From a virus (Duplodnaviria; Caudoviricetes): a stretch of 64,000 nucleotides of DNA. The notes under the pieces were generated by a model. It was given only the letters and a program-made list of their open reading frames with translations. It was not told the origin of the DNA and searched no databases. Shown one piece after another: positions 24,404 to 63,999 of this stretch (position 1 is its first letter; each line of letters starts with the position of its first letter). Made by a program: the position numbers and the translations under genes. The stretch is from IMG/VR virus record IMGVR_UViG_3300030376_004503, positions 7,895-71,894 of that record; one strand, written 5' to 3'.

Positions 24404-25771
24404 ATGAACATAATGCCAATTTCAGATAGCCCTTGGGCACCAACGGGCTTCGGTACTAACACTAGAAACATAGCAAGTATTTTTGCAGATGCAGGACATA
24501 AGGTAGGATATGCTGGATGTCAAAATCCACAGCACGACCCTAATTGGGAAACACCTTGGCCATTAGGACAAGATGAAAAGAAAGTGTCCTTTGAAATATT
24601 ACCATTAATGTATCCCGGCGATGAAAAGTTCGGGGAAAAGTCTATTCAACACTGGTTAGAAGGTTTTAAACCAGATTTAGTTTTTACTCATTTAGATATT
24701 CAGATGTTTGATTATGTTACACACCACAAAAAACCTCCAATGGTAAACTTACCTTTAGCAGATGATAAAGGGACGTGGCAGAATCAACAACAGTTTATAA
24801 GATTAGCACGTAAAGCTTACAAAATGTCACAGAAACCTAGATTTAAATTAGGTTCTATTATTCCTATTGACGGTCAACCCTCAATTCCGGGTTGGTTACG
24901 CACAATGGAACACGTTGATTTCCCTATAGCTATGTCTAAATATGGACAACAGGTTATGTTAGATGATTTTGATGGTTATAAATCTACCTATATTCCTCAC
25001 GGTGTAGATACAGATTTCTTTAAACCAAGAGATATACCTAAACCTAATGATGCTTTCGTAGTTGGATGTGTAGCACGTAATCAACATAGAAAAAACATTC
25101 CTCGTTTAATGAGGTCGTTTAAATTATTTGTAGAGCGTAACAATTTAACACCTGATGACGCTAAGTTAATGTTACATATGCATTGGGAAGACCATATGGG
25201 TTGGAACATAGAATATATGACTAGTGACAAGGTGTTTGATATTAGAGATTACTTAGTCCCACCTACAATGGGTAACCTAGAAAAGGGCGAAAACCCAGAC
25301 GATGATGGTATGGTTGACATTTATAATATGATGGATGTACACGCACTCCCTACTGGTGGTGAAGGATTTGGTATACCAACAGTAGAAGCAATGGCTTGTG
25401 GTGTTCCTAATATTATATGTAATTACACTACTAGTTACGAATTAGTTGGTGCAGATGAACCAGAATGTCCACCTGAAATGTTATTCCCACACGGGTTAGA
25501 TGGTGACAACAAGTTGATAGAATCTGACAGAGGTATTCTTGTACCTTACAAAGATATGTGGTGGGATACTCCTATCAGAGCAGCTCCAATGAGGGCTTTA
25601 TGGGATGAACAAGCTGGCGCTGACGCTTTAGAATACTACTACAAAAACCGTGATGTATGTAAAGAACACGGAAAGAATGCACGTAAATATGCAATAAAAC
25701 ACTATGACTGGATGAAAGCAGTTGGCCCTATGTGGTTAGATTTTATCAAGACGGTGGAGAAACATATATGA
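24404..25771 (+). CDS. GT-B glycosyltransferase (GT4-like)
   Basis: SDSP..TGFG N-terminus; IPHGVD; RNQHRKNI; GEGFGIPTVEAMACG. Confidence 0.9.
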   Translation: MNIMPISDSPWAPTGFGTNTRNIASIFADAGHKVGYAGCQNPQHDPNWETPWPLGQDEKKVSFEILPLMYPGDEKFGEKSIQHWLEGFKPDLVFTHLDIQMFDYVTHHKKPPMVNLPLADDKGTWQNQQQFIRLARKAYKMSQKPRFKLGSIIPIDGQPSIPGWLRTMEHVDFPIAMSKYGQQVMLDDFDGYKSTYIPHGVDTDFFKPRDIPKPNDAFVVGCVARNQHRKNIPRLMRSFKLFVERNNLTPDDAKLMLHMHWEDHMGWNIEYMTSDKVFDIRDYLVPPTMGNLEKGENPDDDGMVDIYNMMDVHALPTGGEGFGIPTVEAMACGVPNIICNYTTSYELVGADEPECPPEMLFPHGLDGDNKLIESDRGILVPYKDMWWDTPIRAAPMRALWDEQAGADALEYYYKNRDVCKEHGKNARKYAIKHYDWMKAVGPMWLDFIKTVEKHI

Positions 25772-25869
25772 ATGATATAAATTGGACAGGACATTTAGAT
25801 GTTATGTTTTTTATTATATTATTTTATCCACTTGCAGTAGAATACCTTAAGTGGAGATTAGGGGTATGA
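25768..25869 (+). CDS. 33-aa single-TM micropeptide
   Basis: Manual ORF MNDINWTGHLDVMFFIILFYPLAVEYLKWRLGV with ATGA overlaps at both ends. Confidence 0.55.
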   Translation: MNDINWTGHLDVMFFIILFYPLAVEYLKWRLGV

Positions 25870-26213
25870 ATTTTATATTTGATATGGAACACGTTATATG
25901 TTCCCCTAACGCTGACTATGGTCTATGTAAACCTATAGCAAACGTGACAGAATTTATGCAATGGTTAAAGAAACAAGGTCATCATATAACTATATGGACC
26001 AAGCGTACAAATGATATGGAAACTAAAATGAAAACAGAAAACTGGTTAAAGATTCAACAAATACCTTACAATAGGTTGTTGTTTGATAGACCACGTCAAG
26101 GTATATTTGTAAATGAAACGCCATCTAATTGTCAATACTTCGGTACAGATGATAGTGATATATTTGTAGTGGCAGAACTGTTCAAGGAGTGGAAAGAAAG
26201 TGTTAGGGAATAA
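25866..26213 (+). CDS. HAD-fold phosphatase-like protein with degenerate motifs
   Basis: FIFDMEH (DxD-like), GHHITIWTKR, IPYNRLLFDRP; likely ATG 25866. Confidence 0.6.
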   Translation: MNFIFDMEHVICSPNADYGLCKPIANVTEFMQWLKKQGHHITIWTKRTNDMETKMKTENWLKIQQIPYNRLLFDRPRQGIFVNETPSNCQYFGTDDSDIFVVAELFKEWKESVRE

Positions 26214-26478
26214 CGGTCCTTTGATGAAAATCAAATGGTTAGATGCAACTAATGCTACACAACAGAAGAAGATAGATATTGAAGACCCTAGTAATCACTT
26301 ATCATATTGTGAAACAATAGGGGAGGTAGTAGCTCAATGTGAAAGAGCTATTGTAATTAACTATCACTATTCTGATATAGATGGGGTAGATTTTATATGC
26401 ATCCCCACTTCTTGGGTAGTTGAAATGGAGGAGTTGTGTCTAAAGGATTCAGAGAGTTCGGTATCCCGCAAAGAATAG
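26200..26478 (+). CDS. Small beta-barrel hypothetical protein
   Basis: IKWLDA...CETIG...IPTSWV pattern, seen in small phage proteins. Confidence 0.6.
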   Translation: MLGNNGPLMKIKWLDATNATQQKKIDIEDPSNHLSYCETIGEVVAQCERAIVINYHYSDIDGVDFICIPTSWVVEMEELCLKDSESSVSRKE

Positions 26479-27506
26479 CTAAGTGCTATAGTGTAGAAGA
26501 TATTCTACAATTATCAACCCACCATTCAGGTACTAACAATTGTTACGTTAGTGTTTACGCTTTTACTGGCATAGAAAACGGTAAAACTATTTACGACAGT
26601 GCAGTAATAAACACAGTATGGTTTGATTTTGACCACGATAAAGATGTTACTAAGTGTTTAAAAGATGTACGTAAACTATACAATAGATATTGTAAACCTA
26701 ACAATTTAGTTCCTCGTATATATTACACAGGTGGCAGAGGTTTTCAATTAAACATAGACTTTCCTTTAATTATAGACTTATCTGACAGTATCAAAAGAGT
26801 GATGATAAAGGATTACTTATTGTTCTTAAAAGATAAGTATACACTTACTACACTAGACACTCAATGTATTAACAACAGTGTATCTTGTTTACGTAGAATG
26901 CCTGACACCCCTTACATAAATAAAAAAACGGGGGAACCTAACGGGCAGAAATGTATACAGATAACAGTGGATGAAATGTTAGACTTAGAATTAGATGATA
27001 TTATTACACTATCTTATAGAGATAACACCCCTATAGTGAACTCTAGAGATAGTAACTTACAAGCCGCCAAAGACTTCGTATACTTTGTGTGCGATAAATT
27101 AGGTGTAACTTACACACCCACTAACTCTATAGACCATTTACTAGACACTATAAATGGCAGAGAGTATAGTAACCCACGCGGTGATGTTAAGTTAGATTAC
27201 ATTATACCACCTCGTGACTGTATACTTACATTAATAAATGAAGGTATAGAAAGGGGTCACTTAGGTCATTCAGAAAATACTGCTATTGCAGTGGAGTTAA
27301 TAAATGCCAACTGGAAGAATAAAGACATAGCTTTTGTTTTTAAAGCTATCTTTAACGACGAGCCTGCTGGTGACTGGGGATGGTATAACGATGATGGTTC
27401 AGCCGGGTATCATATTAGTAACCTTCGAGCGAAAGGTATAAATAGATATTCAGGTGATAAGTTAGTAGAACTAAAAATATGCAAACACAAGTATTGTGTT
27501 TGTTGA
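26436..27506 (+). CDS. Archaeo-eukaryotic primase (PriS-like) with C-terminal helical domain
   Basis: VWFDFDHD (motif I), YTGGRGFQL (motif II), LRRMPDT (motif III region). Confidence 0.85.
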   Translation: MSKGFREFGIPQRIAKCYSVEDILQLSTHHSGTNNCYVSVYAFTGIENGKTIYDSAVINTVWFDFDHDKDVTKCLKDVRKLYNRYCKPNNLVPRIYYTGGRGFQLNIDFPLIIDLSDSIKRVMIKDYLLFLKDKYTLTTLDTQCINNSVSCLRRMPDTPYINKKTGEPNGQKCIQITVDEMLDLELDDIITLSYRDNTPIVNSRDSNLQAAKDFVYFVCDKLGVTYTPTNSIDHLLDTINGREYSNPRGDVKLDYIIPPRDCILTLINEGIERGHLGHSENTAIAVELINANWKNKDIAFVFKAIFNDEPAGDWGWYNDDGSAGYHISNLRAKGINRYSGDKLVELKICKHKYCVC

Positions 27507-63221: not shown

Positions 63222-63251
63222 AATTTCACCTCATTTGTAACAACGTGGAAT

Positions 63252-63266
63252 TTATATATAAAGATT
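63252..63266 (-). promoter_or_regulatory. TATA promoter
   Basis: Minus strand caatcTTTATATATA. Confidence 0.6.
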
Positions 63267-63270
63267 GTCC

Positions 63271-63999
63271 TTAATCTTTGACAACCCAAACACCGACAGC
63301 AGCTATCATAAAAGTCTTATTTGCTCCCCTATAAGCAGCTATTGATACATTTGCAGAGGCAGTATTACTTCCTCCTTCATAAATGACATCAGAACTACCA
63401 GTTTGTTTTTGAACTTGTAAAGCTGCTGTTGGGTCAGCATCCCATTGTTGCATAACTGTTATTTCTAAACCTTCTTTACCTGATTCAGCAAGAGGTAATT
63501 CAGTTGGAATAGCTGATGAACCGGGAGCACTTATACCTTCTGGTTTTACATATTGAATATTTGGTGCGTGTTGTAAAACCGCATTTTGGTCAAAACCAGC
63601 GTGGATTGCACGTATATAAAGAGATTCTCCTAATGATTTCTGGAACGATGCGCCACTAGCGTGTATGTCTGTTACGTGTATTTCTTTACCAGCACCTATA
63701 CGAGCGGCGTTAAATCTCATATTAGTACCGTCGTAACTTATATTAGCTTCACCACCAGAGCCCATTATTATACCGGTTGTTGAACTATCAGCATCCTGAT
63801 GGATGTAACTACTATTCTTAATAGCTCCTATTACATCTAATGCAGTAGAAGGGTTATTTGTGCCTATACCTACATTACCAGCAGAGGTAATGTGCATTCT
63901 TTCTGTGCCTTCAGTAGTTGCATCATTAGCAGCTGTAAAAAATTGTAATTTAGTGGCTGCATTCATACCAGATGTTCCACCACCGATAGCTACTGCATT
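63271..63999 (-). CDS. Fibre-like virion protein, C-terminal part (start lies outside the window)
   Basis: Frame is open to the window edge; ERMHITSAGNVGIGTNNPSTALDV is a typical phage fibre repeat. Confidence 0.7.
   Translation of the reverse strand, partial: NAVAIGGGTSGMNAATKLQFFTAANDATTEGTERMHITSAGNVGIGTNNPSTALDVIGAIKNSSYIHQDADSSTTGIIMGSGGEANISYDGTNMRFNAARIGAGKEIHVTDIHASGASFQKSLGESLYIRAIHAGFDQNAVLQHAPNIQYVKPEGISAPGSSAIPTELPLAESGKEGLEITVMQQWDADPTAALQVQKQTGSSDVIYEGGSNTASANVSIAAYRGANKTFMIAAVGVWVVKD

Follow-up and report, generated by a model that had tools for sequence, protein, structure and literature searches.

Ser-Gly turns on the exterior virion proteins of an uncultured tailed virus and a possible link to its virus-encoded glycosyltransferases

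Chemical evidence that viruses glycosylate their virions with enzymes of their own exists for mycobacteriophages and giant viruses. Mycobacteriophage virions are reportedly O-glycosylated by phage glycosyltransferases (GTs), with the glycans placed on the C-terminal parts of capsid and tail-tube subunits. In chloroviruses and mimiviruses, virus-encoded enzymes glycosylate the capsid or the fibrils. The conversion of host surface glycans by phage GTs, e.g. by gtrABC of P22, is also established. Cytoplasmic O-glycosylation of a serine next to glycine is described for the beta-helix protein TibA, in which TibC modifies Ser-313 in the context ...QNSGGA... (PMC4358343). For the Poseidoniales viruses (magroviruses), glycosylation of the tail or capsid by a GT4 was suggested by the authors from gene position (PMC11706807, citing also Zhou et al. 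2023). Here we analyze a 64,000-nucleotide stretch (the window), positions 7895-71894 of the 71,894 bp viral contig IMGVR_UViG_3300030376_004503, which holds most of the genome of an uncultured tailed virus. It encodes a core GT of family GT4, a variable island of sugar genes, and exterior virion proteins that are rich in the motif [AVILT]-S-G-[TASN].

The motif was counted in a main set of eleven proteins of at least 200 amino acids (aa) that are rich in Ser, Gly, and Thr, and in the other 22 proteins for comparison. Expected numbers were obtained from per-protein (global) shuffles or from 15-residue local shuffles. The main set contained 60 motifs, as compared with 10.8 expected from the global and 12 from the local shuffles. 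The other 22 proteins contained 2, against 3.2 expected from the global shuffles. The reversed word (25 against 11 expected) and h-G-S-p (15 against 11) stayed far lower, and the excess is therefore directional. An unbiased k-mer count yielded SG as the most over-represented dipeptide (150 against 89.5, z 6.7), followed by Gly-Thr, with VSG, SGT, SGS, and ASG among the top tripeptides. Just two 7-mers are common to different proteins of the genome, LVASGAT and FDVSGAS, and both are centered on SG.

Other causes of the excess were tried and rejected. An earlier sequence-only reading of this DNA had pointed to the Ser-Gly word and had cautioned that its carriers, the fibres among them, are Ser/Gly-rich anyway; this caveat was removed by the shuffles, both global and local, and by reversing the word. 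Among the large virion proteins, paralogy was detectable only between the 1217-aa and 1597-aa proteins (24% identity) and between two tube-like proteins, and it was ruled out as the cause. Avoidance of GATC, which would lower GS, was ruled out by a GS count of 116 against 89.5 expected.

The virion proteins of the window considered here are as follows, with motif counts given against the expected values.

35191-38145, minus strand: 984-aa distal tail protein; 6 motifs against 0.89; SG 15, GS 7; a WGDG stretch looks PKD-like by eye.
38121-42740, minus strand: 1539-aa tail/fibre protein; 7 motifs against 1.33.
42744-45353, minus strand: tape measure protein, a negative case (Pfam PhageMin_Tail, 1.4e-23); 0 motifs; SG 1 against 5.9 expected.
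46050-46700, minus strand: 216-aa tube-like paralogue, 36% identical to the protein at 46697-47302; 3 motifs against 0.21.
46697-47302, minus strand: 201-aa putative tail tube protein, assigned by position; 1 motif against 0.22; its LVASGAT is also in the protein at 27945-28235.
50211-51197, minus strand: 328-aa connector-region protein with a beta-sandwich insert (about residues 112-298) that resembles a carbohydrate-binding module (CBM); 7 motifs against 0.34, the densest carrier; 91 homologues.
51921-55574, minus strand: 1217-aa fibre protein (Pfam Laminin_G_3, 8.6e-19); 11 motifs against 2.0.
55574-60367, minus strand: 1597-aa fibre protein (Laminin_G_3, 2.8e-49, 4 stretches); 9 motifs against 2.5; its FDVSGAS is also in the 328-aa protein.
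60360-62759, minus strand: 799-aa protein with strand-SG-strand repeats, beta-helix-like by eye; 8 motifs against 1.07; SG 22; no Pfam or PHROG match.
63271-63999, minus strand: C-terminal part of a fibre (whole about 1074 aa), whose open reading frame (ORF) is open at the window end and has its 5' part at genome 1-2497; PHROG tail fibre, 9e-11.

The 832-aa part of the end-spanning fibre contained 6 motifs against 1.56 expected. The 328-aa protein has 8 SG (ASGT four times, TSGT, LSGT, VSGA, and an N-terminal MSGL) and 0 GS. SG counts in the large tail and fibre proteins were 15, 21, 24, 31, and 22, as compared with 3 in PolB and 0 in the GT4. These counts, and the occurrence of LVASGAT in both 46697-47302 and 27945-28235, agreed exactly with what the sequence-only reading had stated. 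The names 'neck protein' and 'tail tube' used there for the 328-aa and 201-aa proteins reflect gene order only, as neither has a Pfam or PHROGs match. No motif enrichment was found in the major capsid protein (MCP), the portal, the large terminase subunit TerL, the tape measure, a 779-aa protein, or the non-structural proteins, and the MCP has no obvious Ser/Thr-rich extension. The motif excess is confined to outward-facing virion proteins.

The tandem tube-like paralogues (216 and 201 aa) sit upstream of chaperone-like ORFs and the tape measure gene, and both are kept in all relatives. A 132-aa protein encoded beside the MCP gene (genome 3709-4107, minus strand) gave a weak Phage_cement_2 match (E 0.009), carries 2 motifs (0.17 expected), and is a possible decoration protein.

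Around SG, hydrophobic residues were enriched at positions -1 and -3 and depleted at +2, which corresponds to a strand followed by a turn. An AlphaFold2 model of the 328-aa protein, built from 62 homologues (mean predicted local distance difference test, pLDDT, 77.5), has a CBM-like jelly roll in its middle. Foldseek matched the model to CBM29, CBM11, and CBM4 (5e-5) and to the turret of Haloferax tailed virus 1 (HFTV1; 8qpg_TA, 5e-4). All seven internal SG pairs are located at strand ends or hairpin loops of the model, and most of them enter loops of 2-4 residues. In this model, the idiom is a tight, exposed turn. This h-x-G-p idiom also occurs in the fibres of T4, where x is Asp, Asn, Ala, or Gly. 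The motif word is a beta-turn; what sets it apart is that its first position so strongly favors Ser, or Thr in some relatives. Across all orthologue alignments, the motif Ser was kept in 48% of cases, as compared with 32% for other serines. Among 61 homologues of the 328-aa protein, Ser184, Ser232, and Ser271 were mostly kept.

The 328-aa protein may itself be a glycan-binding module at the head-tail junction, having a CBM29/CBM11-like insert and resembling the HFTV1 turret. HFTV1 has been proposed to bind host glycans via CBM-like domains (PMC12494034).

Side-chain preferences at the turn differ among the relatives of this virus, ten of which (G001-G010) were sampled. The clade that lacks the sugar-gene island uses Thr-Gly turns (1.6-3.9x), and the clade of this virus uses nearly all Ser-Gly. 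In G005, a 1932-aa protein (64748-70546) has 16 SG against 29.6 expected and 41 GS, and h-T-G-p occurs 128 times genome-wide against 33. The fibres of G001 and G004 are dominated by collagen-like Gly-x-Gln triplets (QG 130 against 57 and 158 against 58 expected), which this virus lacks; their top tripeptides are GRQ, GEQ, and GTQ.

The candidate enzyme common to the whole lineage is the core GT4.

24404-25771, plus strand: core GT4 (retaining GT-B), 455 aa, soluble; Pfam Glycos_transf_1, 3.5e-11; PHROG 2170 'glycosyltransferase', 5e-28.

The Glycos_transf_1 match covers residues 300-350. The E-x7-E motif reads EGFGIPTVE at 320-328, and both E320 and E328 are invariant in 19 homologues. The AlphaFold2 model (pLDDT 82, predicted TM-score 0.83) contains two Rossmann-like domains in a GT-B fold. 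The top Foldseek matches were MshA, SPS, BshA, PimA, PglA, and a GT of chlorovirus NY2A (3oy2), with E-values down to 2e-15 and TM-scores of 0.6-0.74. The N-terminal acceptor domain had no family match in Pfam. An atlas search placed the enzyme in large virus-only GT4 clusters. It was present in 40/40 related viral contigs found with it and in 10/10 sampled relatives, with an identity of 47-84%. An MCP-profile scan for distant GT4-less relatives returned only close ones among the best 80 of 460, all having at least 61% identity. In this genome, the GT4 gene adjoins PolB, a nuclease, and ribonucleotide reductase (RNR). Its closest relatives in reference phages are found in two isolated phages, S-CBS4 and phiPsal1, where the homologue lies within head-morphogenesis modules. 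The order in S-CBS4 is portal-x-GT4-GalT-methyltransferase (9916-12282), so that the homologue stands beside a second GT and an S-adenosylmethionine (SAM)-dependent methyltransferase. In phiPsal1, the order is MCP-GT4-methyltransferase-GT2-neck (6979-9351). Genes of these kinds also make up the islands of the relatives G006 and G007. S-CBS4 is a phage of a cyanobacterium, and phiPsal1 is a phage of Pontimonas.

The remaining sugar genes are flanked by a small conserved gene on one side and, directly downstream, by the RNR gene.

27945-28235, plus strand: 96-aa protein with the motifs VASGAT, LSGT, and ISGS (3 motifs against 0.10 expected); last conserved gene before the island; homologues in 5 of the 9 relatives compared.
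28369-28599, plus strand: 76-aa ORF, first gene of the island; homologues only in the island-bearing G006 (41%) and G008 (50%); no family match.
28610-29338, plus strand: GT-A enzyme (GT2-type), 242 aa; Pfam Glycos_transf_2, 8e-6, 26.3 bits against a cut-off of 23.3; no homologue in 9 relatives; no transmembrane segment.
29335-30195, plus strand: GT-A enzyme (GT2, weakly GNT-I-like), 286 aa; Pfam Glycos_transf_2, 3.4e-5, 24.3 bits against 23.3; GNT-I, 0.0057.
30177-31217, plus strand: nucleotide-sugar 4-epimerase-like enzyme of the short-chain dehydrogenase/reductase (SDR) family, 346 aa; Pfam Epimerase, 5.9e-45, model 1-240/240.
31180-31923, plus strand: DUF5672 protein, 247 aa; Pfam DUF5672, 2.4e-19; a 75% identical copy in G008 only.

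Aspartate-rich motifs are present in both GT2 enzymes (VDDYS in the first, EDD at 104-106 in the second); both gave weak Pfam matches, no usable PDB match, and no NCBIfam match. The second is just 34-39% identical to island GTs of G006, G007, and G008. The epimerase keeps GxxGxxG (GIAGMMG at residue 12) and YxxxK (YGVAK at 160). Its best PDB relatives are the UDP-glucose 4-epimerase 4zrm (8e-36) and the epimerase 6zl6 (2e-32), and it matched NCBIfam GalE at 1.8e-32 with a score of 112, below the equivalog cut-off of 262. The DUF5672 protein had no PDB, PHROG, or NCBIfam match. Pfam thus bore out the set of genes named by the sequence-only reading (GT4, two GT-A, SDR epimerase, DUF5672), and no hydrophobic segment was found in any of the five proteins (maximum 19-residue Kyte-Doolittle average at most 1.36). 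For the last of them, the family assignment held, and its description as a GT was that reading's guess only. Among the scanned ORFs, we saw no flippase, polymerase, or oligosaccharyltransferase, and no integrase, membrane-anchored GT, or lysogeny gene.

At the same site, the closest relative, G006, carries seven different genes, encoding a CAP59-like GT, a GNT-I-like GT2, an SDR protein, two methyltransferases, a GT4 fragment, and a DUF2334 protein. The island of G007 comprises three genes, and G008 has the epimerase (63%) and DUF5672 (75%) in common with this virus. The complete or near-complete genomes G001, G002, G003, G004, G005, and G009 lack the island and are free of PF00535 matches throughout. 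The GT2, epimerase, and DUF5672 genes form a swap-in accessory island, and a multi-GT cassette of this kind, with epimerase and methyltransferases, would build an oligosaccharide.

The 1217-aa fibre is 65% identical in G008 and only 46% in G006, although PolB is 90% identical in G006 and 65% in G008. Fibre type and island type may travel together, since G008 also has the epimerase and DUF5672; this is a hint only, as G006 is incomplete at the fibre region.

Further controls were taken from unrelated proteins and phages. Bacterial LamG_3 proteins of similar Ser and Gly content (29 sequences) gave 62/43 = 1.45x, and an explanation by fold alone was thereby rejected. For nine phages and haloviruses, the ratios were 0.6x (T4), 1.0x (T5), 1.5x (HF1), 0.6x (phiCh1), 1.7x (lambda), 1.2x (P-SS2), 1.3x (S-CBS2), 0.7x (phi38:1), and 1.9x (KVP40); where tested, these had no PF00534 or PF00535 match. 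The excess is not accounted for by fibre function either. Phages with a GT4 homologue reached 3.3x (S-EIVl), 2.5x (S-CBS4), and 2.4x (Mae-JY09), and HTVC008M, with a GT4 homologue or another GT match, reached 2.3x. In this small set, pooled without the present lineage, the GT genomes gave 170/84.8 = 2.0x and the GT-less genomes 67/57.3 = 1.17x (Mann-Whitney one-sided p = 0.037; 0.004 for genomes with at least 5 expected motifs). The motif-GT trend across unrelated phages is weak and serves as a lead. Within the lineage, genomes bearing the island had SG ratios of 1.66-2.0x, as compared with 1.22-1.36x for the others; the former are one clade, so this is a single contrast.

From these data we tentatively propose, as a possibility, that the turn serines are O-glycosylated, with the core GT4 priming and the island diversifying the glycan. 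The GT4 would act in the host cytoplasm, on fibre, tail, and connector proteins that are folding or already folded, and attach the first sugar to serines in their exposed turns. This glycan would then be extended or altered, strain by strain, by the variable cassette. The cassette would at most diversify the glycan, as the motif exists without it. The outcome would be sugar-decorated fibres, not a sugar-coated capsid: the MCP is not enriched, and the glycan-coated virion envisaged by the sequence-only reading is therefore not indicated. The proposal draws on a motif that crosses unrelated folds, is directional, and occurs on exterior virion proteins only, and on predicted enzymes that are soluble, of which the GT4 is always present. 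We consider it doubtful that this extends to a general acceptor code, in which the PHROG 2170-like virus GT4 family would prime exposed Ser/Thr-Gly beta-turns on the exterior tail, fibre, and connector proteins of archaeal and bacterial tailed viruses, with the cassettes diversifying the glycan between strains, so that the fibres would wear a variable sugar coat.

Several results weigh against the proposal. Six island-free relatives keep the motif at 2.1-4.1x; in G001, the orthologue of the 984-aa protein has 11 motifs against 1.4 and that of the 1539-aa protein 14 against 1.75, and the G004 connector protein has 7 against 0.27. The island is therefore not needed for the motif and cannot be its 'writer', the role that the sequence-only reading had assigned to its cluster of four GTs and an epimerase. 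The co-occurrence of GTs and motif, which it had named as a check, held as a weak trend across phages and not for the island among the relatives; the GT4 is never absent in the sampled lineage, so GT4-motif co-occurrence is uninformative there. The phage comparison was small and picked post hoc, with GT status defined by two Pfam families or a GT4 homologue only, and it includes the GT4-bearing TJE1 (0.8x) and phiPsal1 (0 against 0.8 expected) and the GT-bearing P-SSM2 (1.5x), none of them enriched. In all orthologue alignments, the motif Gly was kept in 64% of cases, ahead of the Ser. In the alignment of 61 homologues for the 328-aa protein, Asp or Asn mostly takes the place of Ser159, Gly mostly that of Ser197, and position 242 is Asp, Ser, or Asn next to an invariant Gly243. 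Gly kept above Ser, and Ser swapped with Asp, Asn, or Gly, is what a purely structural Asx/ST-turn (ST, Ser/Thr) predicts. The enzymes that the GT4 resembles in structure act on acceptors that are small molecules, lipid-linked, or polysaccharides, and the Foldseek matches listed for its model include no protein O-GT. The GT genes have replication and nucleotide-metabolism genes as neighbors and lie on the other strand from the virion genes, and the virus is uncultured. On balance, the SG motif is a plausible sequon: the excess and the soluble viral GTs named by the sequence-only reading were borne out, but Gly is kept above Ser and Ser is replaced at several sites.

It is rather unlikely, in our judgement, that the motif is purely structural, a lineage-specific use of ST-turns, and that the GTs remodel lipid-linked or S-layer glycans of the host. 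The remodelled glycans would be the likely receptors of the viral LamG/CBM fibres, and their change could block superinfection or the sticking of progeny to lysed cells. Host-glycan conversion has its precedent in P22, and the turn positions in the model, the conservation of Gly above Ser, the replacements of Ser, the T4 idiom with Asp, Asn, Ala, or Gly in its place, and the persistence of the motif without the island all agree with this alternative. So do the GT genes sitting with early/middle-type genes, the peripheral enzymes with lipid-linked acceptors (PglA, PimA) among the structural neighbors of the GT4, and the lectin-like fibres, together with the proposed glycan binding of HFTV1 (PMC12494034). 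A structural origin explains the position and variation of the motif, but not the five-fold Ser preference across unrelated folds on exterior proteins only. This preference is absent in fold-matched cellular proteins and in phages without GT matches, and the trend with GT presence is also left unexplained. Moreover, host conversion is typical of temperate phages, whereas no membrane-anchored GT, flippase, integrase, or lysogeny gene was seen among the scanned ORFs, and the GT4 homologues of S-CBS4 and phiPsal1 lie inside head modules. O-glycosylation of the turn serines would account for the five-fold preference; we infer it, and it has real counter-examples.

The same GT evidence would also serve a different arrangement, in which the viral GTs glycosylate virion proteins at other Ser/Thr-rich stretches or termini, after the manner of the mycobacteriophage systems, and the SG idiom is an unrelated structural habit. 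The fibres are Ser/Thr-rich overall (8-10% each), and phiPsal1 and TJE1 have a GT4 homologue without motif excess. This arrangement is unlikely in our view: it accounts neither for the motif excess, which is lineage-specific, directional, and cross-fold, nor for the GT trend, and the MCP is neither enriched nor provided with an obvious Ser/Thr-rich extension. Modification of DNA (glycosylated hydroxymethyl bases) or synthesis of a small molecule by the GTs, with the motif unrelated, is suggested by the position of the GT4 gene next to PolB, a nuclease, and RNR, and T4-type phages do glucosylate their DNA by GT-B enzymes. However, the scanned ORFs included no gene for a dCMP/dUMP hydroxymethylase and none resembling thymidylate synthase, and a cassette of several GTs, an epimerase, and methyltransferases, predicted to build an oligosaccharide, is atypical of DNA glucosylation. 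These findings make DNA modification highly improbable, and the homologous cassettes of other phages sit in head modules.

The rest of the genome is consistent with a tailed virus of archaea. TerL, the portal, and an HK97-type MCP were identified by Pfam just outside the window. The plus strand encodes an exonuclease, a DNA methyltransferase, a RecU/Hjc-like resolvase, an eIF-1a family protein (1.7e-13), PolB, and a class II RNR; the minus strand carries the tail and fibre genes, including that of the tape measure protein. One fibre ORF spans both contig ends, so the genome is probably circularly permuted. Its halves (window 63271-63999, minus strand, and genome 1-2497) join to about 1074 aa, as for a circular or permuted genome assembled without overlap. 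A pattern scan revealed archaeal-type elements (AACCTTTATATA) combining a B recognition element (BRE) and a TATA box ahead of operons on both strands. Two of them bear on the sugar genes.

24148-24163, plus strand: BRE/TATA-like element GAACCTTTAAATATAA, ahead of a small Sm-like ORF and the GT4; pattern scan.
30119-30133, plus strand: BRE/TATA-like element within the second GT2 gene, at its 3' end; the epimerase starts about 45-60 nt further on; pattern scan.

The first element is closest in wording to the one at 51903-51918 (minus strand) that precedes the 1217-aa fibre gene. Promoter wording was considered as a timing clue and rejected, as one BRE/TATA consensus is common to all promoter-like sites. 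The element at 30119-30133 is a possible internal promoter for the epimerase, DUF5672, and RNR genes. The BRE/TATA elements and the aIF-1A gene would fit an archaeal host. No match was obtained in a host search with aIF-1A against genome contigs, or for the MCP among the phages of the collection. For the class II RNR (31958-33826, plus strand), the nearest cellular relatives found are bacterial (metagenome-assembled genomes of a beta-proteobacterium, 62%, and of Gracilibacteria, 52%), though the virus looks archaeal.

For marine archaeal viruses, virion glycosylation has so far been guessed from gene position only. The present case offers a tractable system with a defined enzyme, the core GT4, and a defined substrate, the 328-aa protein with seven candidate serines in a domain of about 190 residues. 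Should the serines be modified, this would be the first acceptor rule for protein glycosylation in phages and archaeal viruses. It would explain why many aquatic viruses carry GT cassettes, and it would be a factor in host recognition, particle stability, and the metaproteomic identification of viral proteins. If the serines are unmodified, a lineage-specific structural idiom that neither fold nor composition explains still stands, together with a warning against reading sequons from motif counts.

The comparison with described systems places the proposal between several precedents. It shares with mycobacteriophages soluble GTs that would act in the host cytoplasm, accessory and variable GT genes (here the island), and structural proteins as the proposed target. 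Glycans were chemically shown in mycobacteriophages, reportedly in C-terminal regions of capsid and tail-tube subunits and not on a Ser-Gly turn word, and here they are proposed; the present system also differs in its unenriched capsid protein, in having one GT4 as a core and not an accessory gene, and in its presumably archaeal host. An acceptor feature that tracks the GT genes among relatives, as would be looked for in a system of the mycobacteriophage type, was not found for the island, with the motif at 2.1-4.1x in its absence. Like giant viruses, this virus would rely on a host-independent, cytoplasmic multi-GT pathway with nucleotide-sugar enzymes, and GNT-I-like and CAP59-like GTs occur in related islands. 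In giant viruses, however, the MCP or fibrils are targeted and the hosts are eukaryotic; here the virus is small and tailed, and the MCP is not implicated. The P22 gtrABC genes are similar in that phage GTs occupy a variable accessory locus. The gtr systems are those of temperate phages and include membrane proteins, namely a flippase and a membrane GT, while all enzymes of the present virus are predicted to be soluble, and no lysogeny genes were seen among those scanned.

The magroviruses, too, are tailed viruses of marine archaea; they have a GT4-family gene and replication modules based on PolB (PMC11706807). This virus was placed in no magrovirus group. That report neither names an acceptor motif nor separates a core GT from an island, and it offers no statistics. 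The best mechanistic analogue is the modification of TibA and AIDA-I by TibC and AAH, i.e. multi-site cytoplasmic Ser modification of beta-rich surface proteins. These bacterial autotransporter heptosyltransferases (BAHTs) are dodecameric, have an iron finger, and use ADP-heptose as donor, whereas the viral enzyme matches Glycos_transf_1/GT4 only, and no BAHT structure was among the Foldseek matches listed for its model. No heptose pathway is evident here either, the epimerase scoring better as GalE-like than as a heptose epimerase. The likeness lies on the substrate side, where the exposed Ser-Gly turns predicted in beta-rich proteins are accompanied by soluble enzymes.

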